Part shown: positions 10,004 to 60,875 of the stretch, in pieces
Layout of the letters: each line of letters begins with the position of its first letter
Position numbering within the stretch: the first letter of the stretch is position 1
DNA from: Bacteroidota bacterium
Lineage (GTDB): Bacteria; Bacteroidota; Bacteroidia; Palsa-965
Assembly (NCBI GenBank): GCA_013298545.1
Contig: JAAFIA010000004.1
Coordinates: 26,832 to 90,831, forward strand
Direction of reading: 5' to 3'
Length of the DNA: 64,000 bases
Notes under the pieces: generated by a model
What the model saw: the letters and a program-made list of their open reading frames with translations, nothing else
The model's database searches: none
Told to the model about the DNA's origin: nothing
Program-made: the position numbers and the translations under genes

Positions 10004-13000
10004 TTAGTACGTGATGGTACGTGTAATGATTTCGTTTGTTTCACTCTTCAAACGGATGGTGTAAACACCACGCTCTTTTGTTGATAGATCAATTTGTTTG
10101 CTGTATGTTCCAGAGAAGCTCGTCAGATCTTCGCGGTAAACAACTTGACCCAGCACGTCATAAATTTCGAGCACGTAGTTTTCTTTCTTATCCACATTGA
10201 ATCGCAATTCAAAACGACCGTCGTTTGGATTTGGATATAACGAGAAGAAGTTTGCCGCAGATGTACCTTCGATTCCAGTAATCATGATTGGTTGCGATTC
10301 AACAGAAGGACAGCCAATAGCATCATACACAACAACAGTATAGTTGCCTGTTTGTGTTGCGGTATAAGTTTGTGCAGTTGCGCCTGGGATCGGATTTCCA
10401 TTGAGGAACCACTGATAACTTGCTCCTGTTACAGACGATGTCAGTACGTTGCCAACATTGGTAATGGTTGGTGTTGCAGGTGTTGAACCAACAGTTACGG
10501 TTACAACAACCGTTGCCGTACAACCATTGATGTCTGTTCCTGTTACGGTGTACGATGTTGTTGTTGCTGGAGAAACGGTTACAGAAACGCCGCTAAGGTT
10601 GCCCGGATTCCACGTGTAAGTATCAGCGCCTTGCGCGGTAAGTGTTGTGGCATCGCCAGGGCAAATTTGTTGATTGCCGGTAGCGGTTACAGTAGGCGCG
10701 TCGTTTACGTTAATGGCAACTGTGCCAACGTTTGTACAGCCATTTGCATCTGTTCCTACAACGGTGTAAGTAGTATTTGACACAGGAGAAACAGTTACTG
10801 GAGATCCGCTGAGGTTGCCAGGGTTCCAAGTGTAGGTATTTGCTCCTGATCCGCTAAGAACGGTGCTGTTTCCAGTACAGAGTGTGGTATTCGATGCAGA
10901 CGCAGCAACAGTCGGTAAGCTATTGACGGTTACAGCAACGGTCGATGTATTTGTACAACCGTTTGCATCTGTTCCTGTTACGGTGTAAGTGGTTGTCGCA
11001 GTTGGTGCATCGGTTACAGAAGCACCGCTCAAATTACCCGGCATCCAGTTGTATGAAGATGCGCCACTAGCGGTCAACGAAACAGAAGATCCTTGGCAAA
11101 TTGCGGCATTGCCAGATGTTGCCGTAACGGTTGGCGGCGTATTGACCGTGATCGAAACAGTAGAGGTGTTTGTACAACCTGCAGCCGATGTTCCAGTTAC
11201 AGTATAGGTTGTGTTTGCTGTTGGAGCAACACTAACCGAAGAACCAGAGAGGTTGCCCGGATTCCAAGTGTATGTTGATGCGCCACTGGCATTCAGCGTT
11301 GTGTTTCCACCAGAACAAATTGTACTGCTTGTTGCGGTCGAAGAAATGGTTGGCAATTGATTGACCGTTACCAGAACAGTTGCTGTATTTACGCAGCCCG
11401 GGCCGTTTGAACCTGTTACGGTGTATGTCGTTGTCGTTGCTGGCGAAACGGTAACAGAAGCGCCACTCAAGTTGCCCGGCATCCAGTTGTACGTTGTCGC
11501 GCCATTGCCTGTCAGTGTTGCAGAATTGCCAATACAAATTGCCGCATTAGAAGTTGCTGCAGTTACTGTTGGCAAACTTCCTACTGTAATTGTAATGGTT
11601 TGAACGTTTGTGCAACCACTCGTAGTTCCTGTTACGGTGTACGTTGTTGTTACGGCAGGAGTAACGGTAATCGATGCACCACTCAAGTTGCCTGGTTGCC
11701 AGTTGTATGTGGTTGCGCCTGATGCCGACAAGGTAACAGGATTGCCTGTGCAGATACTTGTGCTCGAAGCGGTAGTCGTAACAGTTGGAGAAGGGTTAAC
11801 CGTAATGGTTTGGTTAAACGTGTCTGTGCAACCATTGGCTGCTGTTCCGGTTACGGTGTACGTTGTTGTTGTTGTTGGCGACACCGTTACAGAAGTACCA
11901 CTCAAATTGCCCGGTTGCCAAGTATAGGTGCTTCCACCAGCAGCCGTAATGGTTGTGCTGTTTCCAGAACAAATCGTTGCGAGTGCAGTTGACGCGGTTA
12001 CGTTTGGCGTTGTGTTAACCGTAATGGTTCGTGTTGTTGTTCCTGTACAGCCAGCAGAGGTACCTGTGATGGTATAGGTTGTTGTTACAGCAGGAGATAC
12101 AGTTACCGACGCACCACTCAAATTGCCCGGCATCCAATTGTAGGTTGTTGCTCCAGAAGCCGTGATGGTGGTGCTATTTCCAGAACAGATGGTGGTGTTT
12201 GTAGCTGTTGTGGTTACTGTTGGCGAAGGATTGACAGTAATAGTTTGATTCACCGTGTTTGTACAACCATTCGCCGCAGTTCCTACGATGGTGTAGGTTG
12301 TTGTTGTTGTTGGCGACACCGTGTTTGAAGCACCACTTAAATTACCCGGTTGCCAGTTGTACGTGCTTGCACCAGAGGCTGTGATGGTTGTACTGTTTCC
12401 AGAACAAATTGTAGCGAGCGCAGTTGATGCTGTTACGGTTGGTGAGGTATTAACCGTAATGGTTCGTGTTGTTGTTCCTGTACAGCCACCTGTAGTTCCG
12501 GTGATGGTATAAGTTGTCGTTGTTGCAGGAGATACTGTTACTGAAGCACCACTCAAATTACCCGGCATCCAATTGTAGGTTGTTGCTCCAGAGGCAGTAA
12601 TGGTTGTACTATTGCCAGAACAAATCGTCGTATTTGTCGCCGTAGTTGTAACGGTTGGACTTGGCGTAACGGTTATCTGAACGGTTGAAGTCGCAGAACA
12701 ACCTGCCGATGTTCCCGTTAAGGTATAAGTTGTCGTTGTTACAGGAGATACCGTTACTGAAGCGCCACTCAAATTGCCCGGCATCCAGTTATACGTTGAT
12801 GCACCAGTAGCCGTGAGTGTTGTACTGTTTCCAGTACAAATGGCTGTATTTGATGCCGTAGCGGTTACCGTTGGTGTTGGATTTACAGTAATGGTACGCG
12901 TTGATGTTCCCGTACAACCAGCCGATGTTCCCGTAATGGTGTATGTTGTTGTTGTTGTTGGCGACACCGTATTTGAAGCACCAGTCAAACTACCGGGCAT

Positions 13001-16000
13001 CCAGTTGTAGGTTGTAGCACCAGAAGCGGTAATGGTTGTGTTGTTGCCCGAACAAATGGTTGTACTGGTTGCCGTAGTTGTAACGGTTGGAGTAGCGTTT
13101 ACAGTAATAACCTGTGTGGCACTACTGTTGCCATTTCCATTGGTAGCGGTGAGTGAAACAGTATATGTTCCGGGTGTGTTCCAAACAATACCAGAAGGAT
13201 TTTGTGCTGTTGACGATGCCGGAGTTCCACTCGGGAATGTCCAAGCCCAACTTGTTGGGCCGCCTGTTGAAGCATCGGTAAAATTGACGGTTGCGCCTGT
13301 ACATACTGTTGTTGCGCTTGCGGTAAATGCAGCAACTGGGCCAGCAGCAGCGTTTCCGGCAAGGTTTACGTTATCAACATAAAGCGCTTGTCCGTAGCGT
13401 CCGCGGTTGCGGAATGCGACGAGCACAGAACCTTGACCAACATAGGCATTTAGGTTAACTGATTCGTTGCGCCATTGTGCGTTTGTTGGAACAAAAATGG
13501 TTGCTGTTTGATCGGGAGCGGTTGCAAGTGTTGTGCCTCCTTTCAAATAAACCGAAGTCCATGTTGCTCCACAATTGGTAGAAACAACGACTTCAAGTGT
13601 ATCGGAATAGGTAGCGTCGTAGCGCGCATAAGCGACATCAAATGTTAACGAGCAGGTAGTGAGTGCAGAAAAATTAAGGCGAGGCATAATCATCTCGTCT
13701 CGTGCACCTGCTACGTCCATTGTATAGTTATCAAATCGAGCACTTGCGGTTGAGTTGTAACCAACTGTTTGACGGTTCCAATAAATACCATCGTTATTGA
13801 TGTTGTTTGCCGTCCAGCCCGCAGGGAGGAATGTTGTTGATTCAAATCCTTCCGATATAGGCGGATTTTGAACACCAAGAACTGTAATGACTTGCGTAGT
13901 AGCATTGCTGCCGTTTGCGTTTGTTGCAGTAAGCGTTACCGTATATGTTCCGGGTGTATTCCAAACAATACCGCTTGGATTTTGTGCCGTTGATGTTGAT
14001 GGAGTTCCACTTGGGAAAGTCCAAGCCCAAGAGGTTGGAACAAAAGAGGATTGGTCGGTAAAGTTTACGCCCACTCCCGTGCATGTTGTAAATGTGCTTG
14101 GAGTAAATTGCGCCACCGGAGGCAATGTTCCGGGATTGTAAATATCAACTTCCCAAACACCACGTCCATACGTTGCCGCGCGAAGCTTGCCTGTTGGGGC
14201 ATAAACTTCAAGATCTTCGATACCGCAATTCGGAATACCAGTGAGGTAAGGCTGCCAAGAAGCGAATGTATTATCGATGTAATACACGCCAACATCCATA
14301 CCTACATAAGCCGCATCATTTGTTGCACCTGGCATATAAGTAATACAGTTTGCAGGAAGATTTGGAAGGCCCGTAGAAAGGTTTGTCCATGCTCCGCCAC
14401 CATTGGTAGTTTTATATACTTTATTTCCAGAAGAATAGCCAGAGAATGTTACCAAAACGGTGTTTGGATCATTTGGTTTAATAGCCAATCGAGTAATGGC
14501 CGCCGAACCAACAGGAAGTGTACCCGTTACGTTTGTCCAAGCACCACCACCATTGGTTGATTTCCAGACTTGGTTAGAGCGGCACACATAAATCACCTGA
14601 TTGTTTGATGGGGCAACTTGAATATCGACAATTGTTCCTGATCCAGTTAATGTGCCTTGTTGCGTCCAATTCGTTCCTTGGTTGGTTGACTTAAAGACTT
14701 GTGTATAACCCGCCCAAAGTGTATTGGCTGTTGTCGGATCTTGTACCCAAGGCGTAACCCATGCTGCATTTCCTGTAAGGCCAGTAATAATTCCTGTCCA
14801 TGTAGCACCGCCATTGGTTGTTCGGTTAAAGTTACCATTGTATTGCTCGCCATACATGACATTGTTGTTTGTGCGATCAACAAAGCAAGTCATACCATCG
14901 CCGCCCATCGTTTCGGAATAACCCGCACCGTTGCGCAGGTTCGTTCCATTGTCTTGGTGGCCAGTGAGCCAGTATGTAGGATTAGAGGCAGATAAACCAA
15001 TACGATAGATTTGAGCGATGCAAAGATTTGCTGAAATATCGGCCCAAGCACCGCCGCTGTTGGTTGTTTTAAACACACCACCGTCGCAACCTGCAAAATA
15101 AGTTGTACCACTTCCGGGCAAGAACACGAGATCGTGAACGTCTGCATGCACATAAGGTGCGCCGGTGCCAGTCCAGTGTCCATTGATTGTCCATGTTGTA
15201 CCGCCGTTTGTGGAGCGCCAAATATTGACACCACCTACAATAATTTGGTCTTGGTTGAGTGGAGAAGCGGCAATGGCTAAATCATACCAACTTTGTCCAC
15301 CAGTATCGCTACCTGTGCTTGACCAACCCAGCACGTTTGGTGTTGTAGAGCGTGAAGCAAATGTTGTTCCGCTATCGGTAGAGCGATAAAGGCCATAAAA
15401 ACCACTATTGGCATTGCTTCCAGCTAAAATATACACATAAGCAGGATTTGCTGCGGTAACAGCAATTGCTAAACGGTTGTTTTGTGCGCTTGTTGGAAGG
15501 CCAGAGGTAATGTTTGTCCATGTTGCACCGCTGTTTGTTGATTTATAGAACAATGTTCCAGCAGCATAAATGGTTGTCGGATCGCCAGGTTTAAATTCTG
15601 CATCTTTAATGTTGGCCGTACTTACTTGAGCCCAATTTACACCAGCATCAGTCGAACGCCAGATACCCGCACTGGAGAAGGCCATGATGATTTGTGGATT
15701 GGATGGGTTGATGAGCAATTTGCTAATCACGCGGCCTTGGTTTACTGTCCAAGTCAAGCCTGATGTATTCCATGTAGTACCACCATCAGTCGATTTTAAA
15801 ACGCCAATCGAGTAAGAGTCGCCCGCATCGCCATCGCCAGTAGCCAAATACATGATTTGTGTATTGGTTGGATCAATAGCCACATCGGTACAGCCGATGA
15901 CGGTCAGAAAATCGGTATTGGTTGTCCAACTAACACCTCCGTTAATTGATTTCCAGAGGCCGCCATCGGGAGCGCCAGCCCACATGGTAGTGCTGTTGGT

Positions 16001-18777: not shown

Positions 18778-19485
18778 ATGAAACGAATTGCTTTTTTAGG
18801 AATCTTTTTGGCGCATCTCTTTTCCGCAAACGCGCAGGAACGCCTTGCTCCTGTTGATTTTCAGAAAAAACTAGAACAAACACCGAACGCTATTTTGCTC
18901 GATGTGCGCACTCAAAAAGAGATCAATAAATACTACATTGATAGCAGTGCGGTTTTCCTCGATTTTTACGATAGTCTTTTTGCTTCACGACTTCGTACAC
19001 TCGACACAACGCGTCCGGTTTTTGTGTATTGCGCCATTGGCGTAAGAAGTCACGATGCTGCGCTTATGTTGCGTAAAGCGGGATTTGACGAGGTGTATGA
19101 TTTACGTGGCGGAATTATGAACTGGAAAATGGATGGTTTGTCTTATGTCAAACCTGTTGGGTCGGTAGAAGAGCGTGGCATGAGTCAGGAAGAATTCAAG
19201 CAATCGCTAGCAGGAAAAAAATTGGTTTTAGTCGATTTTTATGCGCCTTGGTGTGCGCCTTGCAAAATTATGGTTCCCGCCCTCGATTCCCTCGCTGCTC
19301 AAATGGGCGATTCCGTTACGGTTGTCAAAGTCAATGGCGACGAGCATTTGGGCTTGATGAAAGAAATGAATATTCGCGAATTGCCGATGGTTATGATTTA
19401 CGAAGGATCAACAGAAATGTATCGACGTGTAGGGTTTATGAGTCGCGAAGACATGATGAAACTGGTTCGGGAATATTATAAGTAA
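18778..19485 (+). CDS. secreted rhodanese-domain / thioredoxin fusion protein
   Basis: Signal peptide MKRIAFLGIFLAHLFSANAQ. Rhodanese active-site loop VFVYCAIGVRS. Thioredoxin motif FYAPWCAPCK. Confidence 0.8.
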   Translation: MKRIAFLGIFLAHLFSANAQERLAPVDFQKKLEQTPNAILLDVRTQKEINKYYIDSSAVFLDFYDSLFASRLRTLDTTRPVFVYCAIGVRSHDAALMLRKAGFDEVYDLRGGIMNWKMDGLSYVKPVGSVEERGMSQEEFKQSLAGKKLVLVDFYAPWCAPCKIMVPALDSLAAQMGDSVTVVKVNGDEHLGLMKEMNIRELPMVMIYEGSTEMYRRVGFMSREDMMKLVREYYK

Positions 19486-19564
19486 AATGCTAGTGTGCTT
19501 TCTACGCGCTATGCCAGCGCAGATATGAGATTTGTGACGAGAGGCATGAGACTGGGCCGTTATA

Positions 19565-19619
19565 GAATTAATGAGTTGGTAAATTGGAGAATTGGCGATT
19601 TACCAACTCACTAATTCAC
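19565..19619. repeat. palindromic intergenic element (family copy E1)
   Basis: gaattaatgagttggtaaat / atttaccaactcactaattcac inverted arms (~20 bp) with a 13-nt loop, followed by aaactgcgcg. Lies between the convergent rhodanese-Trx and cvpA genes. Confidence 0.6.
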
Positions 19620-19687
19620 AAACTGCGCGAAAGCATGTGCGGTCTCTCGTCTCAAATCACACGTCTAACTTTTTTGAATTCACAGCT

Positions 19688-20263
19688 TTATTTCACCGGA
19701 ACGGTCAACGAGTCTTGATCTTTCACTTTTACTTTTAAATCAATATTTAAATCTTCTTTTCCCGGAATCATTTTACCCAATTGTGTTTCGCGTAGGCCGG
19801 GCAATACCATCGGAGCAAAAGCGGCCACAGGTCGATACAAAAGCGATTCGTCTTTCATCTTTGGCGGAATGATGGACATTTTTTCCTCTGCGGCATCGAG
19901 GACAAAAAATAACACACTAATGACGAGTAAAAATTTTCCCGCCCCCAAAGCCCCGCCCACTATTTTATTTACCATACTCAACGCCGCATTTTCAACCACA
20001 CGCTCCACTAACTTGGCAACCGCATAAACACCAATCAAAATTCCAACAAACACCAGCGCGAACGAAATCAATGGAATGTATGGAGACTCCGAATCCATCC
20101 ACCCGCGCAGAATCCCCGCCATCCAATCAGAAAGGTGTGTTCCGCCCCACAAGCCCAGAAAAAAAGCCACCAACAAAGCCGCTTCCATAATAGCACCCTT
20201 CATAAACCCGCGCCAAAATCCCCAAAGGATTGGAATCGCGACAAGCAAATCGATTGCATTCAT
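19688..20263 (-). CDS. cvpA: CvpA family membrane protein (colicin V production protein-like)
   Basis: MNAIDLLVAIPILWGFWRGFMKG... with 4 TM helices, the typical CvpA N-terminus. Confidence 0.8.
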   Translation of the reverse strand: MNAIDLLVAIPILWGFWRGFMKGAIMEAALLVAFFLGLWGGTHLSDWMAGILRGWMDSESPYIPLISFALVFVGILIGVYAVAKLVERVVENAALSMVNKIVGGALGAGKFLLVISVLFFVLDAAEEKMSIIPPKMKDESLLYRPVAAFAPMVLPGLRETQLGKMIPGKEDLNIDLKVKVKDQDSLTVPVK

Positions 20264-20455
20264 GGTACAAAGTTCGTTTTTGTTGCAAGCCTTTCACGTT
20301 AACAAGCTGTTGTTTTTCCATGCTATTTTGTGAATAGCGAGAACAGGTTTCAAGTTCCAGATTCCAAGTTCCAAAGGTTGCGCTTTTGGACACAGTTCGG
20401 TTTTAAAGTTCCAAGTTCCAAACGTATGTGTAATATAAATCGAATCAATTGCCCC

Positions 20456-20636
20456 CTGGAACTTGGAGCTTGAGATTTGGAACTTGGAATCTGGAACTTG
20501 GAACTTGGAAACTGGAAACTGGAACTTGGAACTTGGAAACTGGAAACTGGAACTTGGAAACTGGAACTTGGAAACTGGAACTTGGAAACTGGAAACTGGA
20601 ACTTGGAAACTTGAAACTTGGAACTTGGAAACTTGA
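20456..20636. repeat. heptanucleotide microsatellite (GGAACTT / GGAAACT)n, ~25 units
   Basis: Uninterrupted run ggaacttggaacttggaaactggaaactgg... in the intergenic region between divergent cvpA (start 20263) and the 20655 CDS. A perfect 25-bp inverted copy (20351-20375, caagttccagattccaagttccaaa) matches 20476-20500. Confidence 0.9.
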
Positions 20637-20654
20637 ACCTTACCTTTGCCACTT

Positions 20655-23819: not shown

Positions 23820-24783
23820 ATGACAAATTTTTCTAAGCAGCCAATATCTATTCCTGATCAAATAGCGCTTTTAAAATCAAGAGGGCTAATTATTCCTGAT
23901 GTAGCTCGTGCAGAACGTTATTTATCAAACATTAGCTATTACAGATTTAGTGGATATGCGAAATTTTTTCAAGTACAAAATGATCCCAACCACAACTTCA
24001 TTGTAGGGACAAGTTTTGATGATGTTTTAGCGTATTATTTATTTGATAGAAAATTGAGATTGCTTGTTTTTGATGCAATTGAACGTGTTGAAGTTAGTTT
24101 CAGGACAGCATTGGTCAATAACCTCTGTGTCGATCATGGTTGAACGTGTTGAAGTTAGTTTCAGGACAGCATTGGTCAATAACCTCTGTGTCGATCATGG
24201 TACAAATTGGTATGAGGAACAAAACCTATTTACAGATCCATTGCAATACAGCAAAAATCTAATCAAGCTGGTTTCAGAAATAGATCGCTCTGGAGAATAT
24301 TTCATTAAGCATTACAAAACATTCTACCAATCGCCGCAGAGACCTCCTGCATGGATGAGCTTAGAAATAGCTTCATTGGGCTTGCTATCTACAACATACC
24401 GAAACTTGAAAATGAGTCCTGCGAAAAAGAGGATAGCATTACAATTTGGAATAAAAGCTCCTTATGTTTTTGAAAGTTGGATGGAAAGTCTGACTTATGT
24501 TAGAAATGTATGTGCGCATCATGCCAGATTGTGGAATCGGAACCTGACTATTAAACCTCAATTACCCAAAACTACAACAAGCACTTTTTTAGTTAATACG
24601 TCAGCACCCAACACATCGCTATATACATGCTTATCCTGTCTTCTATATTTAAGAAAAAACAGTAATCCGAAAACAGAGTTAGCTAAACGTATTCGCCAAC
24701 TTTTTATAGAATACCCGAATGTTGATATACAAAAAATGGGCTTCTTGTCGGGATGGGAAAAAGAACCAATTTGGGCAACATAA
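23820..24783 (+). pseudogene. Abi_2-family (AbiD/AbiF-like) abortive-infection gene, disrupted by a 61-bp tandem duplication
   Basis: N-terminus MTNFSKQPISIPDQIALLKSRGLIIPD..ERYLSNISYYRFSGYAKFF is the classic Abi_2 (PF07751) start. The reading frame breaks at 24141, where the 61-bp segment tgaacgtgttgaag...gtcgatcatggt (24080-24140) is exactly repeated (24141-24201). The amino-acid stretch ERVEVSFRTALVNNLCVDHG therefore occurs in both halves. Removing one copy restores a single ~300-aa ORF. Confidence 0.75.
24080..24201 (+). repeat. perfect 61-bp direct tandem duplication inside the Abi_2 gene
   Basis: The two copies are identical base for base. 61 is not a multiple of 3, so the duplication causes a frameshift. 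Confidence 0.9.
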
Positions 24784-28417: not shown

Positions 28418-28911
28418 AGGAAACGTTAGTGCATAAAAAAAGCCCTCCTCGGTTATCCGGGAGGGCTTCGCTCAACACACCAACAATCAACATCACCATA
28501 ACGAATACATCTCCCGACTGCTGTTAGCGCAGCAGCACATACACATGCCTTGGCACATGTTTGTAAAGGAAATGACGGTCATGATGCGTGTCATGTTGAA
28601 GTTTCGTTTCGAGGTTCTCTTGCGAGAAAGCCTCAATATTTTGATCTGTTATGTTTATAAAGCAAAAGCCTTACAAAACAGAATCAGGATTGTGTTTTGC
28701 CAACAACAGAACTGATTTGTCGCAAATATAATGGGGTTTCGTCGAAAAAAACAAATCAATTCTGACAATTCTTACAAAAATACGGTATCGGTAGGCGTTT
28801 CAATAGGCATTTGAATCGATACCCGTTGTCCGAAAAAGCCCTGACATACAAGCGAGTAAAACGAAATGGTCGTTTTGGTAATCGTTTTCGAGAGTAAATC
28901 AGACAGGAATA

Positions 28912-28940
28912 AAAAAACGCGCGTTTTCAAGGGCGCGTTT
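28912..28940 (-). terminator. intrinsic terminator for the minus-strand gene ending at 29032
   Basis: On the minus strand: acgcgccc-ttgaaa-acgcgcg followed by ttttttt. Confidence 0.65.
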
Positions 28941-29031
28941 TGAAATGGGGAAAAAACAAGTGCACTATTTCAGCAAAAAGGCGCATAACAATTCCGAGGC
29001 TTCGGAACAAAGGATAAAATTTAAACAGGCT

Positions 29032-29940
29032 CTAATAGATAGAAAACTTGTTGTACGGCAAGTTTAAGCTATCACCAACCAATAGGGTAAAGGCTCTTTT
29101 AAAATTCGCATTCAGATCTTTCACAAAAGCCTCCTTAAAAGCCTCTTGAGCAAAAAAATCGCCTTTGCTTGCTTTGAATCGAAGTTCTTCAGAACTGCCA
29201 AATGTCAATGGAAGAGCAGCAACAAAGGCATTGTTCTTTAGATCATATATGATGAGGCAACCAATCACTTCCTCACCCTTGTAGGTGCCATCTATTCCGC
29301 TATTCGATTCGTCATCAAAATTGAAATTTGCTTTATCCTTTTTAAGAAAATCGAGCTCATTGTCCTTCATGCGACAAAATACATGCAAATATCTTTGCTG
29401 TTCAAACGAAGCAATCTCCTCCGCTTGGAATTCCATAGAACTCATTATGTCTAATCGATCCCGAGTTTCTTTCACAAAAGAAGTATCGTTATAGGGGTAG
29501 CTGGACCATTCGTACGGTATTGCTTCTATCCAAGGCCAACTGACACACAAGCGTATGGTGTCTTTCTGAAAATCATGTGCAGCGGCGTACATCACTTCGT
29601 ATGGAAAGAGCTTGAAATCGAATAGTGCATCGCGTGTTTTTTCTTGTAGCCAGGTTTTATAAGCATCCATTTCGCCACGTTTTATAAAAAGCGAGTCAGT
29701 ATCAACCCGCTCAATATCCCGATATATTCGGCCAATACGCAGAAAAAAATCATCCAGCACTTTTTTGTTTTTCGGATAATTTAAACGATTCTTTTGATCC
29801 TCCACCTCCCATTTTTTTCTATCCACTACTATATCCGCCATACGTCTCTCGTCTTGTCGTTTCAAATACCAAGGGATCAAGGCACAACTTGCCAGAAGGA
29901 GGAAAAGAAAAATAAGACCAATTTTATTTGCCATAATCAA
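29032..29940 (-). CDS. hypothetical membrane-anchored protein (302 aa)
   Basis: N-terminal TM/signal anchor (IGLIFLFLLLASCALIPWYL). No recognisable catalytic motif. Confidence 0.55.
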   Translation of the reverse strand: MIMANKIGLIFLFLLLASCALIPWYLKRQDERRMADIVVDRKKWEVEDQKNRLNYPKNKKVLDDFFLRIGRIYRDIERVDTDSLFIKRGEMDAYKTWLQEKTRDALFDFKLFPYEVMYAAAHDFQKDTIRLCVSWPWIEAIPYEWSSYPYNDTSFVKETRDRLDIMSSMEFQAEEIASFEQQRYLHVFCRMKDNELDFLKKDKANFNFDDESNSGIDGTYKGEEVIGCLIIYDLKNNAFVAALPLTFGSSEELRFKASKGDFFAQEAFKEAFVKDLNANFKRAFTLLVGDSLNLPYNKFSIY

Positions 29941-31749: not shown

Positions 31750-31792
31750 TATTGCTCTCAAGCCACATAATCTTCGCGCAGTTGGCGAATTT

Positions 31793-31857
31793 GGAATTGG
31801 TGAGTTGTTGAATTGGCAAATTTGTGAATCACCAATTCAACAACTCACCAATTCACC
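31793..31857. repeat. palindromic intergenic element (family copy E2)
   Basis: ggaattggtgagttgttgaattgg ... ccaattcaacaactcaccaattc: a perfect 23-bp inverted repeat with a 15-nt loop, followed by accaaact. Lies ~45 bp downstream of the comF stop. Confidence 0.7.
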
Positions 31858-31967
31858 AAACTAAAGGCAAACCCACGCTCTCCGCACTTCGCTCTGTTTC
31901 TCTTACAGTATTGCGTTTCATGTCTCAAATCTGTGAACAGGGTTTATTACCTTTACCGCCTCAAACG

Positions 31968-46120: not shown

Positions 46121-46965
46121 GGCTTATCGGGTTGTTCGTAAACCGCTTCTGCAATTTCTGCTTCAACGGCATGTTTTTTAGGCCAATGAAATTCGGGCGA
46201 CTGCTCAATGGCCGACATGAGCTGCCGCAATAACTCATCGCTATTCCAATTCGGATCAATGGTTAATGGCGCTTTAAAACGTACGCGCATCGTTACACCT
46301 TTCTTTTTCAAACGAATCCCTTTTTTATCAAATGCCCGCCGAAAACCATCAATCACCACGGGTACAACAACAGGATTGTATTTTTTAATCAGCATACTCA
46401 CGCCACGCCGTCCCTGCGCATAAACCTTCGTTGTTCCTTGCGGAAAATTAATCACCCAACCGTTTTCCAAGGCCGTTCCGATATTGGAAATATCATCCAT
46501 GCGCACCTTGCGTTTGACATCCTGTGAACCTTCGCGCCAAGTACGTTGAATAGAAATCGATCCCGCATACGCCAACACGCGTGGCAACCAACCCTTTTTC
46601 ATCGTTTCCTCTGCCGCTACAAAATACGTGTCGATTTTTGGACGAAACAAATAACGCGGTCGCGCAATCGAATTACGATCGCCATTTTTTACGGCACAAA
46701 AAACATGCAACATCGCAATCACATCCGCAAAATAGGTTTGATGATTCGATACAAACAACACATTCGTTTGCGGAAGCAATTCGAGGTGTTCCGTTCCTTC
46801 TATTTTTAGTGTATTTAGTTTCGCATAACGCCGCCACGTTAGCCAGCCCACGGTAAATACCAACAGCCGCTTCAAAAACAAATTATAGCCAAACGGGTCG
46901 CGCTTAAACATCCGGCACAAGATAATACCAATTTGATTTAAAACATAGTTCAAATTCATCTTCAT
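46117..46965 (-). CDS. lysophospholipid/1-acyl-glycerol-3-phosphate acyltransferase family protein
   Basis: NHQTYFAD (HX4D acyltransferase motif block I) and PEGT-like downstream blocks. N-terminal TM. Confidence 0.7.
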   Translation of the reverse strand: MKMNLNYVLNQIGIILCRMFKRDPFGYNLFLKRLLVFTVGWLTWRRYAKLNTLKIEGTEHLELLPQTNVLFVSNHQTYFADVIAMLHVFCAVKNGDRNSIARPRYLFRPKIDTYFVAAEETMKKGWLPRVLAYAGSISIQRTWREGSQDVKRKVRMDDISNIGTALENGWVINFPQGTTKVYAQGRRGVSMLIKKYNPVVVPVVIDGFRRAFDKKGIRLKKKGVTMRVRFKAPLTIDPNWNSDELLRQLMSAIEQSPEFHWPKKHAVEAEIAEAVYEQPDKP

Positions 46966-47122
46966 CGCTGTAAGCCTCCTTTTGAAATGTTTTTTCGGGA
47001 CAAAAATCCATCATAACAATTCCGAGACTTCGGAACGAAGGATGAAATTGAAACAGCTTCTAAACACACATAGACTTATTTCAAGCCGTAAAAACGTATC
47101 GATATTCCTTACCTTTGAACCT

Positions 47123-56780: not shown

Positions 56781-56878
56781 GGGTAATAAAATTACGCAGG
56801 TAAAAGTACAACACCACTTAGGCGAAAGTCAATGCTTGAATTTTAGTAGTAGAAAAATAACCGCGCATTCCTAGCACA

Positions 56879-56937
56879 ATTGATGAATTACTGAATTAAC
56901 AAATCTATCATTCACCAATTTGCTAATTCATCAATTT
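56879..56937. repeat. palindromic intergenic element (family copy E3)
   Basis: aattgatgaatta ... taattcatcaatt 13-bp arms, followed by tcgtaattcaccaactgcgc (the same tail as E1 and E2). Lies between the dinB start and the upstream GH5-like gene's stop. Confidence 0.6.
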
Positions 56938-56966
56938 CGTAATTCACCAACTGCGCACACGCACCC

Positions 56967-58253
56967 TTAAAGGCGAATAATTTTAAACGAAGCCAAATCT
57001 GTTTTCAAGAAATAAACACCCGTAGGCAATTCCTGCAAATCAATCATCGAAGCTCCGCGAGTTACCACAAAACGACCAACCTCTTTCCCATCCACACCCC
57101 ACAAAAAAACGACTTGCTCAGAAGCACTGTTGAAGAAAAGCATTCCTGTATTCGGATTTGGAAAAACAAAATCGGTAAGCTGTTGATCAGCTTCTATGCC
57201 TAACGTAGTGCATCCATTGTTTAACAAATAAAAACTTTTTGCAGGCGCATGTGTGGCCAAACCAAAATTTGGATCATTTACAATCACCTGTCCAAAGCCC
57301 GTCAAACTATTGAAATTTCCGTTTGTTGTAATTTGTCGTGCCGCGCAATTGTCGTTGTCCCAACTCCAGATGAGCCAATGCATGCCAACCGTTTGGCAGT
57401 AGTTGAGTAGCGGAATGTAGTTGAGCGTATATTGACACGCCACTTGATCGTCTTGAAAATTAGCAAGCTCACCAATGACGAATGGAATGTTGGCAGCAAT
57501 TACCGCATTGATTTTTGCTGCCATTTGCGCCGAGTCATTTGCAGCATAGCCAAACCAATAAGCATGCGCACTAAAAATAATATTGTGATCGGGATCTGCG
57601 GCAATCAAATCGTTTGCTGTATTGGAATTGATAAACGCATCCGAGTGTTGCCCACAATCAGGCGCATCAATCATGATTGGAAAATGAAAGCCAGGCGCAT
57701 TGCGCAACGTTTGAATAATTGTTTGATATGTATTCTTGTAGCTTGTCAACGCCGCATTCGGATTATTGTCCCAATTGACATACAAGGCTTCGTTAGCATA
57801 ATTGATAATGATACTGTGTTTGTATTTATTGAGAATGGTCAATACCGGTGTTTGTGTCCACCAAGTAGTCAGAGCAGTTAAACTAGCTGTTGAGTTGGCA
57901 CACGTTTGATCGTGCAATTCTAAAATAGCAATGAGTTTATGTTGTACACACTTGCTCAACGCCGAGTCTAGCGCGGTAAAATTGCTGTATTCCGGGCCTC
58001 CACCAGTAGCATACCAAACCAAGCGAACCGCATTGGCTCCCGATTGCGCAATTTCTGCAAGTTTATTTTGATTGATGGAATAGCCCCAATTGTAAATCGC
58101 ATAGTTTACACCACGCAACAACAACGTATCGTGGCAAGGCCCTAAAATGTATCGGCCACTCGTATAAATTACCGTATCAACCTGAGCAGAACTACGCAAG
58201 GAAGGAACTGCAAAGAGAACAAGTAGAAAATAGAATTTTAAGAAATGGCGCAT
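56967..58253 (-). CDS. glycoside hydrolase (GH5/cellulase-superfamily-like) with T9SS type-A C-terminal sorting domain
   Basis: Signal peptide. (beta/alpha)8-type blocks GANAVRLVW, ILELHD, INYANEA (NEP-like acid/base motif). C-terminal FVFPNPNTG...GVYFLKTDLASFKIIRL CTD. Confidence 0.7.
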   Translation of the reverse strand: MRHFLKFYFLLVLFAVPSLRSSAQVDTVIYTSGRYILGPCHDTLLLRGVNYAIYNWGYSINQNKLAEIAQSGANAVRLVWYATGGGPEYSNFTALDSALSKCVQHKLIAILELHDQTCANSTASLTALTTWWTQTPVLTILNKYKHSIIINYANEALYVNWDNNPNAALTSYKNTYQTIIQTLRNAPGFHFPIMIDAPDCGQHSDAFINSNTANDLIAADPDHNIIFSAHAYWFGYAANDSAQMAAKINAVIAANIPFVIGELANFQDDQVACQYTLNYIPLLNYCQTVGMHWLIWSWDNDNCAARQITTNGNFNSLTGFGQVIVNDPNFGLATHAPAKSFYLLNNGCTTLGIEADQQLTDFVFPNPNTGMLFFNSASEQVVFLWGVDGKEVGRFVVTRGASMIDLQELPTGVYFLKTDLASFKIIRL

Positions 58254-58285
58254 GAAGATTTTTTTAAAAATCGTGGAAACATCAT

Positions 58286-58529
58286 TTTAATGTAGCAAGG
58301 TAATATTTTCAGCGCACGGGCCATCTCGCAATGGGCAAATTGTTGAATTGGTGAATGAAAATTCACGCAAGATTTCGCACCGATAAAGAATGGGTGAATT
58401 ATTGAACTTTAATGTAGCAAGGCAGTATTTTCAGCGCACGGGCCATCTCGCAATGGGCAAATTGTTGAATTGGCGAATGAAAATTTACGCAAGCGTTCGC
58501 ACCGATAAAGAATGGGTGAAGTATTGTAC
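58286..58529. repeat. two-copy direct tandem repeat, 122-bp unit (~93% identity), intergenic
   Basis: tttaatgtagcaagg..gcgcacgggccatctcgcaatgggcaaattgttgaattggtgaatgaaaattcacgcaag..gcaccgataaagaatgggtgaa.. occurs at 58286-58407 and 58408-58529. It contains the ttgaattggtgaat core of the E family. Confidence 0.85.
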
Positions 58530-58610
58530 AGATGACGTTCTAATTTACCAACGCGCTAGTGTTCTCATTCGCCTGTTGCGCGTCAGGTCGTGCGTGGCCT
58601 TAGGTCTCTT

Positions 58611-60188
58611 TCAATTCAACTCGGCCATTAACACAAACAACCGCTCAAATTTATCACGCAACTCCGTTGTTTCCCATCCGGTATTGTTAGCCATCATCGA
58701 GAAGGCTAGCAATTTTCCACTGCGTGTACGCACATATCCCGCATACGTTTTTACACGCGACATGGTGCCACTTTTGGCGCGCAGGTTTCCTTCCGCCAAT
58801 GTGCCATCGGCTAATTTGCGAATGGTGCCCGATTCGCCAGCTACGGGCAGCGAGCGCCAAAATGTTGGAAACATAACCGAATCTTTTGCCACCGCACACA
58901 AGACCTGAACCAATTGTTTGGAAGAAATGGTATTGAATCGCGAAATGCCCGAACCATCAACCATACTAAATCCACGCATATCAACCCCGCGCTCTTTCCA
59001 ATGTTTGAGCACAACCGATGCGCCACCCGACGAACTGCCATAGCCAAGCTGACGATGTGCCAATGCTTTTAAAATAGATTCCGCATAAAAATTCTGACTC
59101 ACTTGATTGGTATGGTAAACCAAATCGGATAAGGCTGGCGACGAAAGCGATTGAATGGTGCGTCGCTCTTTTTTATCCAGTTTAATTCCATTAAACCGAA
59201 TCAGGCGCATGGTGTTGAATGAGTCGCGCACCGCAATGCCAGTTTCGCGCAGTTCGCTGTATAATTTCTGCGCACAAAATAAAGCCGGATCAGGAATGGT
59301 GGTTTTTGTTTCTAGCGCACCGTTTACTTCACCAATAACGGTACGTTCCATTTGATACGGCGCACCTGCTACATACGCATAACTTTTGGCAACACCCGCG
59401 CTCACCACTTGGTTGTACAATTTCAGTCCCGGAATGCGTGGCTCCGAACGCAAACTCACGCCGCCCCCGCTCGCGGTAAGATTCAACGTAAATTGATTTT
59501 CGTGAATAGACAATCCCGAAGCAAAAGCCCCATAATCGCCCTGCATATCTTCCCACGCCCAACCGCCTGGAACCGGATCGCGTTCAAATGCCTCTGCGTC
59601 GCCAATAATCATCCCATCAATGCTATCGACGCCGAGTTGACGAATGGCATTTGTCCAAGAACCAACAACTTTTCCAATGCTACTGCCAAATGTTTCTGAT
59701 CCTAAACTCGGATCGCCGGTACCACGGATATACACATTGCCATGCAAAATGCGCGTGGCCACATCCACCTCACCATCCACTTGCAAATACGTCGAAAACC
59801 GAAAACCACCGCCAAGCACTTGAAGCGCGGTAGCCGTTGTCAGCACTTTGGTAACCGATGCCGGAACTAAAGCCTGTTGAATATTTTCTGCAAGAATAGT
59901 TCGCTGACTATCTGCCGTTACGAGGTAAAAACTCCAAGAGCCACCAATTAGTTTTTCATCGGCAGAAATGGAATCCACCGCCGCGCTCAATCGCCCAAAC
60001 GCACTGGTGTCCGATACTTCAATGAGTGGAACAGAATCGGGTTTAATTGTTGCAGCAAGCGGTTTGGGAGGAGCAGGTGTTGACGGGTTTCCCCAAAAAG
60101 AAACCGCACCACCAATCAATCCAATTGGAGCAAGCAGAAAAAGAAAAATTTCAGTAACCGTAAATGTTTTTTTCAGAATGCGTTTCAC
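58611..60188 (-). CDS. dacB: D-alanyl-D-alanine carboxypeptidase/endopeptidase (PBP4, peptidase S13)
   Basis: SxxK PASVTKVLT, SGN-like, and KTG-like (AKSGTMSRVKTYAGY) motifs. Signal/TM anchor. Confidence 0.85.
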   Translation of the reverse strand: MKRILKKTFTVTEIFLFLLAPIGLIGGAVSFWGNPSTPAPPKPLAATIKPDSVPLIEVSDTSAFGRLSAAVDSISADEKLIGGSWSFYLVTADSQRTILAENIQQALVPASVTKVLTTATALQVLGGGFRFSTYLQVDGEVDVATRILHGNVYIRGTGDPSLGSETFGSSIGKVVGSWTNAIRQLGVDSIDGMIIGDAEAFERDPVPGGWAWEDMQGDYGAFASGLSIHENQFTLNLTASGGGVSLRSEPRIPGLKLYNQVVSAGVAKSYAYVAGAPYQMERTVIGEVNGALETKTTIPDPALFCAQKLYSELRETGIAVRDSFNTMRLIRFNGIKLDKKERRTIQSLSSPALSDLVYHTNQVSQNFYAESILKALAHRQLGYGSSSGGASVVLKHWKERGVDMRGFSMVDGSGISRFNTISSKQLVQVLCAVAKDSVMFPTFWRSLPVAGESGTIRKLADGTLAEGNLRAKSGTMSRVKTYAGYVRTRSGKLLAFSMMANNTGWETTELRDKFERLFVLMAELN

Positions 60189-60234: not shown

Positions 60235-60573
60235 TCAACCCCCAATTTTCCCCAAATGCGTAATGAACCAGAGAAAAATAAAACAGACAGAAACAATTCC
60301 ACTCAATATCGAGTAACCCAAAAAGTAAAGTAGAAAATGTAAACTTCTTTCCGGTTCAATTTTCACACGTTGTAACGAGAGGAAAAGATTTCCACCAAAT
60401 AAGATAAACAAGGCCAACAATCCGAATGCTGATTCATTACTCGTATAAGCATTGCGATATACATCGTAATGCGAGCCAATAAATTTTTCTGGAATGAAAC
60501 AAGCAAGTAAAAAAACAAAAAGCGGAATGCACACCAAGCACAAAAGGAAAAGGACTGTTTTTGATTTGAACAT
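60235..60573 (-). CDS. hypothetical small membrane protein (3 TM)
   Basis: Three hydrophobic helices. No known domain. Confidence 0.45.
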   Translation of the reverse strand: MFKSKTVLFLLCLVCIPLFVFLLACFIPEKFIGSHYDVYRNAYTSNESAFGLLALFILFGGNLFLSLQRVKIEPERSLHFLLYFLGYSILSGIVSVCFIFLWFITHLGKIGG

Positions 60574-60875
60574 GGATAAATTTATTTTGGTTGGAAATCA
60601 ATCGTCGAACAGAACATGACTGAAAATTTCGACAAGTTGTAAATATAGTTTTTGTCAAAGAGTTTTAATCAAAAATAGAAGCCTACACATATCATCGCGG
60701 GAAAAAAAGAGTGGAGTGCGGAGAAAGAGTGCCCAGGGGTTTAGTAACCGCACTCCGCACTCTTTCTTCGCACTCTTAAAACGTCTGTGTCTGGAAATCG
60801 AAAAAAAATGCAACTTGCATAAAATAAAAGCCACGTCGAGTTCGACTACCCAGTATAAAACGGATAGAACGAACC

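Follow-up and report, generated by a model that had tools for sequence, protein, structure and literature searches.

Octamer-repeat palindromes with a conserved terminal tag form a dispersed family at gene 3' ends of an uncultured Bacteroidia lineage and of high-G+C metagenome contigs

Three related intergenic hairpins, E1, E2, and E3, lie in a 64,000-nucleotide stretch of contig JAAFIA010000004.1 from a Bacteroidota bacterium (assembly GCA_013298545.1, positions 26,832 to 90,831), the whole of which is referred to below as the window. The first-pass annotation of this sequence had regarded them as members of a dispersed family of short palindromic elements, either REP/BIME-like or MITE-like, that might serve as terminators or stabilize mRNA. 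This raises the question of how these elements are built, how far the family extends, and which of the known repeat classes, if any, it resembles. All three hairpins were confirmed in position. We built a covariance model, R1, from the window copies E1, E2, and E3 only, and the features used in the following analysis are listed here with their R1 scores where applicable; loci in other genomes and in metagenome contigs carry L numbers.

19556-19628, minus strand: E1, octamer-repeat palindrome (70.4 bits with model R1)
31776-31866, plus strand: E2, octamer-repeat palindrome (101 bits with model R1)
56874-56956, minus strand: E3, octamer-repeat palindrome (92.7 bits with model R1)
19521-19666, no strand assigned: outer imperfect palindrome around E1 (arms 19521-19543 and 19644-19666, 23 nt, 83% complementary)
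58286-58526, no strand assigned: 122-bp tandem duplication upstream of the GH5 gene (2.0 copies, 94% identical)

The core stem of E1 comprises 20 bp with one mismatch and a 13-nt loop (19565-19584 / 19598-19617), and its arms reach 29 nt at 83% complementarity (19556-19584 / 19598-19626). E2 forms a perfect stem of 23 of 23 bp around a 15-nt loop (31794-31816 / 31832-31854), and the 31-nt arms of E3 are 74% complementary (56874-56904 / 56926-56956). The fold z-scores of the three elements range from -4.1 to -8.2, with 0 of 200 dinucleotide shuffles folding as well, and their stems are AT-rich (33-40% G+C). E1 is located at the apex of the outer palindrome, the arms of which consist of GAGAnnn heptamer-like units, and the 150-nt region containing both structures folds at -57 kcal/mol on either strand. 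The outer palindrome is also found in the sister genome described below (L120), where it is better paired (25 nt, 92%).

Analysis of the arms revealed that they are head-to-head arrays of an 8-nt unit, the second arm of each element being the reverse complement of the first; this simple-sequence nature had been absent from the first-pass annotation. With TRF, repeat periods of 8 and 16 were obtained for E2 and for E3. The unit consensus, GGTGARTT, was obtained from 61 units in 15 arrays, and its positions 1-3 were unconstrained by any search pattern used. On the minus strand, E1 reads GCGCAGTT TGTGAATT AGTGAGTT GGTAAATC, followed by the loop and then the inverted units; the units of E2 (plus strand) are GCGCAGTT GGCGAATT TGGAATT GGTGAGTT GTTGAATT GGCAAATT, and those of E3 (minus strand) are GCGCAGTT GGTGAATT ACGAAATT GATGAATT AGCAAATT GGTGAATG. 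Chains of at least four units occur four times in the window (E1-E3 and one unrelated heptamer array) compared to 0.04 in composition-preserving shuffles.

Every array of E1-E3 opens with the octamer GCGCAGTT, hereafter the tag (E1, 19621-19628, minus strand; E2, 31776-31783, plus strand; E3, 56949-56956, minus strand). This octamer is present six times in the window, and three of the six occurrences abut the E1-E3 arrays in phase. The 16-mer AATTCACCAACTGCGC was found at 0-1 mismatch in E1, E2, and E3 only, and at up to three mismatches it gave 7 matches in the window versus 1.07 expected. The tail previously described as shared by E1 and E3 is real, and it also belongs to E2, where it had been overlooked; the E2 copy occupies the left side on the opposite strand (31776-31791), so that E2 has the opposite orientation to E1 and E3. 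The C supposedly inserted between the tails of E1 and E3 is actually a C/A substitution. In E1-E3 and in all tagged copies of other genomes, the element ends read GCGCAGTT / AACTGCGC, and intact doublets are tagged at both ends (GCGCAGTTGG...CCAACYGCGC in L167, L139, and E3). Because well-preserved copies carry the tag at both ends, the element is the full palindrome, with a span of 60-110 nt, and one end of E1 and of E2 is decayed. Dyad symmetry is absent within the single module and arises only when two modules are paired. Doublets are represented by E1-E3, L158, L167, L139, L146, L149, and L145, and solo tagged modules by L120 (8636-8683), L153, and L137, with an additional solo array in L139 (2291-2329). 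The core of the element had also been placed inside the 122-bp tandem duplication. ttgaattggtgaat is indeed found there, and each copy contains GGCAAATT GTTGAATT GGTGAATG together with a small GTGAAT/ATTCAC hairpin, but the duplication gives no R1 match and falls outside the modelled family.

The elements are placed just after stop codons or between convergent genes, as had been proposed. E1 is located between the convergent trx/rhodanese gene (18778-19485, plus strand) and cvpA (19688-20263, minus strand). E2 begins 26 nt past the comF stop (31749), upstream of a GAF-domain gene, and E3 begins 10 nt past the stop (56967) of the GH5 gene, which encodes a cellulase with a T9SS sorting domain; the dinB start is located 94 nt downstream of E3. 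All copies with readable context are preceded by the end of at least one gene, and no copy was located between divergent starts. The suggestion of terminator hairpins fared less evenly. On the minus strand, E3 is followed by the T-rich run GGTTATTTTTCT, and a weak terminator-like match was obtained at its 3' edge, whereas no terminator-like site was scored and no adjacent U-tract is present at E1 or E2. None of the three combines the GC-rich stem and the immediate U-tract of an intrinsic terminator. Canonical terminators with a GC stem and a T-run are present elsewhere in the window.

At all three window loci, the tag end is the one nearest the upstream stop and is in sense with that gene (59, 26, and 10 nt). 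In the high-G+C metagenome contigs, however, four loci are in sense (2-27 nt past the stop) and at least three are antisense, and a fixed sense orientation was rejected as a property of the family. Since intact copies are symmetrical, orientation is of little meaning and shows only which end has decayed. Folding was treated likewise. E3 folds at -45.1 kcal/mol on the transcribed minus strand and at -19.1 kcal/mol on the plus strand, with 6 and 0 G-U pairs, respectively, but among 13 copies neither strand is consistently better, and selection on the RNA strand, suggested by E3 alone, was dropped as a general argument.

The history of each site was assessed by comparison with congeneric genomes, namely a sister genome, S (GCA_051649445.1; loci L120, L123, and L128), and a relative, J, from the JGI metagenomes 3300079089 and 3300079090 (loci L127 and L129-L131). 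Nucleotide identities over phoH and trx (90.6% for window-J, 87.2% for window-S, and 85.2% for S-J) support the tree ((window, J), S). In S, E1 is present at the same site with an R1 score of 57 bits and a palindromic region 89.8% identical to that of the window. A run of 60 nt (19573-19632) is identical between the window and L120, which has a probability of about 5e-10 at 30% neutral divergence; the third codon positions of the E1-adjacent gene are 70% identical between the same genomes. The three changes in E1 of S are limited to one arm and weaken the stem with no compensation. The solo tagged module of S is located 130 nt beyond E1. J has no E1 despite being closer to the window than S, and carries an 84-nt spacer instead.

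At the E2 site, J (L127) possesses a short and diverged element (GCGCAATT GGTGAAT AGTGAATT..., with 6-bp stems) that scores 22.9 bits with R1. Both arms of window E2 share non-consensus units that the J element does not have, so that the perfect E2 stem must have been formed or re-copied after the window-J split. E3 is part of a window-specific 1.78-kb segment (56835-58612) that comprises the 122-bp tandem duplication, the GH5 gene, and E3. This segment is absent from J (L131), where dinB comes directly after PBP4, the two being separated by 86 nt; the E3 end of the segment abuts a T-run also found in J. Upstream of dinB, S has instead a heptamer (TGGAACT) element of the type observed at 20344-20640 in the window. 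No hairpins of the E1-E3 type were found in 20 kb of a more distant relative (L121, 54% protein identity). Between close relatives, members of the family are gained, lost, or remodelled.

Within the window, R1 retrieves E1-E3 and nothing else. Metagenomes were scanned with a pattern composed of the tag GCGCAGTT and three loosely defined units (about 18.5 specified positions), which yielded 37 loci, about half of them plainly the same element. R1 scores of 37-60 bits were obtained at 11 of the 37 loci, and one R1 match outside the pattern selection (L139:3547-3658) scored 48.7 bits, compared to a best control score of 24.8 bits (118 control loci, about 0.86 Mb). The proposal of a dispersed family, as opposed to AT-rich low complexity, is therefore upheld, as R1 retrieves independent copies and gives nothing above 25 bits in control DNA. 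The 11 R1-matched loci correspond to about seven distinct sites (L149 and L164 are one locus, and L142, L162, L135, and L157 are orthologues); either the abundance of exact-tag copies is thus not very high, or the pattern used was overly strict. Two palindromes and the solo array of L139 flank alr within 4.4 kb. Copies that were not chosen by the pattern still start with CAGTT-like boundaries. No near-identical pairs were observed among the copies compared, and nothing therefore points to recent transposition. A scan of a genome collection with the 16-mer tail AATTCRCMAACTGCGC was set aside, as all 118 loci listed proved to be coincidental or to lie in coding sequence, such as GAA ATT CGC CAA CTG CGC, which encodes EIRQLR.

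The 11 palindrome contigs have 63-69% G+C, and the elements in them 40-54%. Two of the 11 are tied to Acidobacteriota, L146 by a RadA identical to a Vicinamibacterales protein and L149 by a gene for an 'acido-empty-quinoprotein'. So is the variant-array contig L133, the transketolase of which clusters with Acidobacteriota; its array units read CGGGARTT and are undetected by R1. The other palindrome contigs probably belong to Acidobacteriota as well, as judged from their G+C content and, in L139, also from an alr gene similar to the one in L146. On the basis of these carrier assignments, the same tag and unit are present in two phyla of very different base composition, in genomes of 44% and about 66% G+C. 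This extension beyond the Bacteroidia lineage of the window, to Acidobacteria of soil, had been missed before. The tagged module was not found in the viral contigs of IMG/VR, and a phage vector was rejected on this ground; untagged GGTGAATT or GGTAAATT palindromes occur after consecutive genes in a few viral contigs. A BLAST search against plasmids gave no match, for which the low-complexity filter is possibly responsible.

In L146, the two arms are homogenised separately, to GGTGARTT in one and GGAGARTT in the other, which shows that arrays evolve by intra-array processes and that pairing is not strictly maintained; unit number also varies between orthologous arrays. L167 and L175 (66-67% G+C, probably Acidobacteriota) carry an octamer palindrome and an AGTCGTC heptamer palindrome, respectively, at the same locus, the flanking proteins of which fall into the same 90% cluster, and L167 keeps a TGACGACGTC remnant beside its octamer palindrome. 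This replacement parallels the difference between the window and S upstream of dinB and the nesting of E1 in a heptamer palindrome. Other palindrome-forming units are TGGAACT (20344-20640), GAGAnnn (around E1), and GAGTGCG (60704-60775) in the window and AGTCGTC and CGTCCTT in L175. A few unit types recur at many loci and in several genomes. Such turnover and same-slot replacement of repeats are reminiscent of REP/REPIN clusters and of cyanobacterial short repeats.

The earlier remark that no such family was known to be characterised in this lineage agrees with our searches, since none like it was found in Rfam or in the literature searched. At gathering thresholds, Rfam detected only one tRNA in the window and nothing at E1-E3, and at a permissive setting E1-E3 matched only generic microRNA-precursor hairpin models, far below threshold. 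A full-text literature search for the element sequences found nothing. Two further candidates were rejected. An integron attC site, prompted by the position of E3 after the variable GH5 gene, is contradicted by the lack of R''/R' core sites and of a cassette array, as well as by the location of E1 and E2 after core genes. For a tRNA-derived element, GCGCAGTTGGT is D-arm-like, but the likeness ends there and the preceding bases are unconserved, so that it was taken as coincidence.

The REP and REPIN elements offer the closest comparison in layout. REPs are defined as palindromes that carry the tetranucleotide GTAG or CGTC at one terminus (PMC3733652), and REPINs are REP doublets that form hairpins (Bertels and Rainey 2011, PMC3116915; Di Nocera et al. 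2013, PMC3733652). Similar to REPINs, the E1-E3 family consists of short, non-coding, extragenic elements in which two inverted modules and a spacer form a long hairpin, with a conserved tag at one or both outer ends, solo modules beside doublets, location at gene 3' ends, and a presence that varies among related genomes. In contrast to REPs and REPINs, the tag is GCGCAGTT, with neither GTAG nor CGTC at the stem foot of E1-E3; the modules are direct tandem arrays of octamers rather than 20-40-bp imperfect palindromes; the elements are AT-rich even in 66% G+C genomes; the copies are strongly divergent, with no master sequence; and no RAYT was found in the ORFs and loci examined. The REP/BIME-like interpretation thus stands for the 3'-end placement, the REPIN layout, and the turnover, and fails for the missing GTAG/CGTC tag and the non-palindromic arms. 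REPs and REPINs typically number more than 100 copies per genome; three copies are visible in the 64 kb of the source genome, and R1 finds no more. No transposase domain was detected in 10 ORFs of the window, including all window-specific ones, and the Pfam annotation of the orthologous loci L127, L129, and L131 contained no RAYT or other transposase. RAYT genes are usually single-copy per genome, and one could be encoded anywhere in the source genome beyond the roughly 64 kb covered here.

Simple repeats provide the second comparison. The arrays of the family share with STRRs and long SSRs their longer-than-chance tandem short units in intergenic regions, the use of few unit sequences at many loci, and the occurrence of one unit in distant phyla with no known vector. 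Cyanobacterial STRRs are heptamer arrays, reportedly described by Mazel et al. in 1990, whereas the unit of this family has 8 nt, not 7. TAACTGA direct repeats are present in Beggiatoaceae, Cyanobacteria, and Bacteroidetes (MacGregor 2015, PMC4679880), and their sets are almost all direct, with one inverted of 170 (PMC4679880). In contrast to these and to STRRs, the arrays described here form palindromes by head-to-head pairing, have a fixed non-repeat octamer at their start, and follow stop codons instead of lying just upstream of start codons.

The family has a defined anatomy, is dispersed over unlinked loci, is placed at gene 3' ends, and turns over rapidly among congeners. We tentatively interpret it as a repeat-based, REPIN-like palindromic element that is tolerated at gene 3' ends; this is the best reading of the data, although we would not be surprised to see it replaced. 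The basic module comprises the tag GCGCAGTT and a tandem array of the 8-nt unit GGTGARTT, and a 20-35-bp hairpin results where a spacer of 10-25 nt separates two modules in opposite orientation. Under this interpretation, the remaining steps would be as follows. Replication slippage would make arrays grow and shrink, which may explain the variation in unit number. The arms would be re-copied from each other via fold-back or template-switch repair, a process to which young perfect palindromes such as E2 could be attributed. A putative trans-acting activity would carry the module to new sites, with a preference for gene 3' ends and existing hairpins, in analogy to the proposed movement of REPINs by RAYT transposases. 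Where it is transcribed at its new site, the hairpin would probably act as a 3'-end barrier or processing site, and some copies may be kept for that purpose. A host role in blocking or processing RNA 3' ends is compatible with the strict placement after genes and with the strong conservation of E1, for which a persistent selfish element would account equally well.

Three other explanations bear on the same observations. The hairpins could have been selected by the host at the RNA level, as terminators, 3'-exonuclease barriers, or RNase III sites, in which case the likeness between loci would reflect a shared requirement and not spread. REP/BIME elements of E. coli form mRNA-stabilising 3' hairpins, and the present elements are likewise stable stem-loops located from a few to 60 nt past a stop; their stems are, however, 20-35 bp and AT-rich, as opposed to the 5-12-bp GC-rich stems of terminators. 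The sense orientation of the tag after the upstream stop at 3 of 3 window loci would agree with a host RNA function but is not maintained in the high-G+C metagenome contigs, where orientation to genes is mixed. Similarly, the transcribed strand of E3 folds far better and is followed by UUAUUUUU, a U-rich run, but E1 and E2 have no U-tract or scored terminator in a window that contains canonical ones, and the 13 copies show no consistently better-folding strand. E1 is much more conserved than synonymous sites, the slot shared by L167 and L175 keeps a hairpin though its unit changes, and in the phage-like contig L170 such a palindrome follows each of several consecutive genes; yet in the closest relative E1 is missing and E2 is represented, between the same genes, by no more than a short version, and the changes of E1 in the sister genome are one-armed and stem-weakening. 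Moreover, the need for a hairpin leaves the shared 8-nt tag and unit unexplained across genomes of 44% and 66% G+C, and we consider this explanation unlikely. Origin in place, as LSSRs or STRRs that arise by slippage from short seeds and by local inverted duplication, would involve no transposition and only a recurrent slippage-prone seed. This accords with the plain tandem repeats of the arms, the like palindromes formed by several other unit types in the same genomes, the differences in unit number between orthologues, the independent homogenisation of the L146 arms, and the sporadic distribution of 5-11-nt LSSRs among phylogenetic groups noted in PMC4679880 with reference to Mrazek 2007. 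It does not predict that the same unit and the non-repeat GCGCAGTT should occur in phase at all three window loci, nor that both should recur at a non-orthologous locus of the sister genome and in the high-G+C contigs, and CAGTT-like boundaries are found even in copies outside the pattern selection, with a small unit repertoire recurring across loci and genomes. The shared non-repeat tag is difficult to explain by origin in place alone, and we regard such an origin as doubtful.

The third explanation is a classical MITE, that is, an internally deleted IS of the DDE-transposase type with termini GCGCAGTTGG and reiterated transposase-binding units. The elements do resemble MITEs in being small, non-coding, hairpin-forming, and polymorphic between strains, and an intact copy consists entirely of terminal inverted repeats, its two termini sharing 8-10 nt; presence and absence also vary between relatives. 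However, no direct target-site duplication was found in the flanks of 12 copies and no clean empty site at orthologous loci without the element, and the MITE interpretation of the first-pass annotation is not supported. The elements (60-110 nt) are also below the size of most MITEs, vary in length by whole repeat units, exist as solo half-elements, and have no unique internal sequence; no related autonomous element or parent IS with these ends was detected in any locus examined. We find a classical MITE very improbable. Beyond the REPIN-like reading that we prefer, there is a more far-reaching and rather unlikely alternative, in which the family would represent a new class of tiny mobile or templated DNA that crosses Bacteroidota and Acidobacteriota, with a putative enzyme that writes or moves it, recognises the GCGCAGTT end, and prefers the apexes of pre-existing hairpins at gene ends as insertion sites. 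Every unit also carries an RTTGG (Y-box-like ATTGG) core, and because of this motif the arrays could be binding platforms for cold-shock-domain proteins; these bind single strands and would tune read-through by opening or closing the hairpin.

The spread and persistence of STRRs, long SSRs, and REPs are largely unexplained outside the RAYT/REPIN case, and the present family combines simple-sequence arms with a REPIN-like layout of tagged doublets. Two features were unexpected, namely this hybrid of simple repeat and REPIN and the identity of tag and unit across phyla. Conservation of one copy is well above that of synonymous sites, whereas the copies near it turn over. Were the elements merely decaying simple repeats, the finding would be a descriptive footnote. 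Otherwise, the tag and unit provide a sequence-defined handle for finding the responsible enzyme, for testing the effect of the palindromes on mRNA 3' ends in Bacteroidota and Acidobacteriota, and for explaining where the assembly of these metagenome-derived genomes breaks and where indels cluster.

The tag octamer of the octamer element, together with the first array bases (GCGCAGTTGGT), matches the consensus of the tRNA D-stem and D-loop at all three window copies (window 19621-19631, 31776-31786, and 56946-56956). Because the bases preceding the tag at E1-E3 are not conserved and nothing else tRNA-like was found there, this likeness is probably a coincidence. Besides the octamer element, the window contains the following repeats and repeat-bearing segments:

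Window 11768-13109, 216- and 435-bp repeats with 70-76% identity, within a 2214-aa PKD-domain gene
Window 20344-20640, a second simple-sequence element type, between cvpA and the next gene
Window 24079-24201, perfect tandem duplication of 61 bp (Tandem Repeats Finder: 2.0 copies, 100% identity)
Window 28985-29040 and 47010-47065, two copies of a separate dispersed repeat of ~55 nt, cataacaattccgagRcttcggaacRaaggatRaaattKaaacag
Window 56835-58612, 1.78-kb segment with a 122-bp tandem duplication upstream of a GH5 cellulase gene and E3 downstream
Window 60704-60775, hairpin of GAGTGCG-like units (AAAAAGAGTGGAGTGCGGAGAAAGAGTGC ... GCACTCTTTCTTCGCACTC)

The 216- and 435-bp repeats are protein-domain repeats with no relation to the octamer palindromes, and the 61-bp duplication lies close to the beginning of a 239-aa ORF. 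The ~55-nt repeat includes a small UCCGA/UCGGA stem-loop. The window differs from the JGI relative over segments 28781-29907 and 46926-47088, and both copies of the repeat are found at the edges of these segments. The GAGTGCG hairpin falls within a 530-nt window-specific segment (60271-60800), whose 112-aa ORF has no Pfam match.

The element following cvpA is composed of inverted AGTTCCA units, a unique core (aaacgtatgtgtaatataaatcgaa), and approximately 25 tandem TGGAACT/TGGAAAC heptamers. In the sister genome, a TGGAACT-type element with two copies of the core is located immediately upstream of dinB (L123 1-185). The JGI relative has a 6.6-kb insertion containing two Por_Secre_tail genes at the cvpA-side heptamer site (window 20378-20462 versus L129 11482-18143). 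The GH5 cellulase carries a T9SS C-terminal sorting domain; the JGI relative lacks its 1.78-kb segment and has dinB immediately after PBP4. Between PBP4 and dinB, all four relatives examined differ, which makes this interval look like an indel hot spot.

Further palindromes were observed on viral and high-G+C metagenome contigs:

L170 7234-7310 and 8330-8430, also L172 and L173 (IMG/VR contigs), GGTAAATT/GGTGAATT palindromes
L157 604-686 and L142 1303-1378, another palindrome type (GAATTTG/GGAATTC units) upstream of a Ser/Thr kinase gene
L175 8818-8907, 11518-11577, and 18222-18283, heptamer palindromes and a GTAG-tagged doublet

On the viral contigs, a palindrome without the GCGCAGTT tag comes after each of the consecutive genes, and these palindromes score 36-40 bits with R1, the covariance model built from E1-E3. 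The kinase gene of L157 and L142 (66% G+C) is flanked by the GAATTTG/GGAATTC palindrome upstream and by the octamer element downstream. Contig L175 (66-67% G+C) shares an AhcY 90% cluster with L167; we infer that both belong to Acidobacteriota. The L175 heptamer palindromes, built of AGTCGTC and CGTCCTT units, are positioned after gene ends, and the same contig has a REP-like doublet of the classical, GTAG-tagged kind (GGGACGGCC...GTAGGGGACGCCC). It follows from L175 that several palindromic repeat types coexist in the genomes that carry the octamer element.
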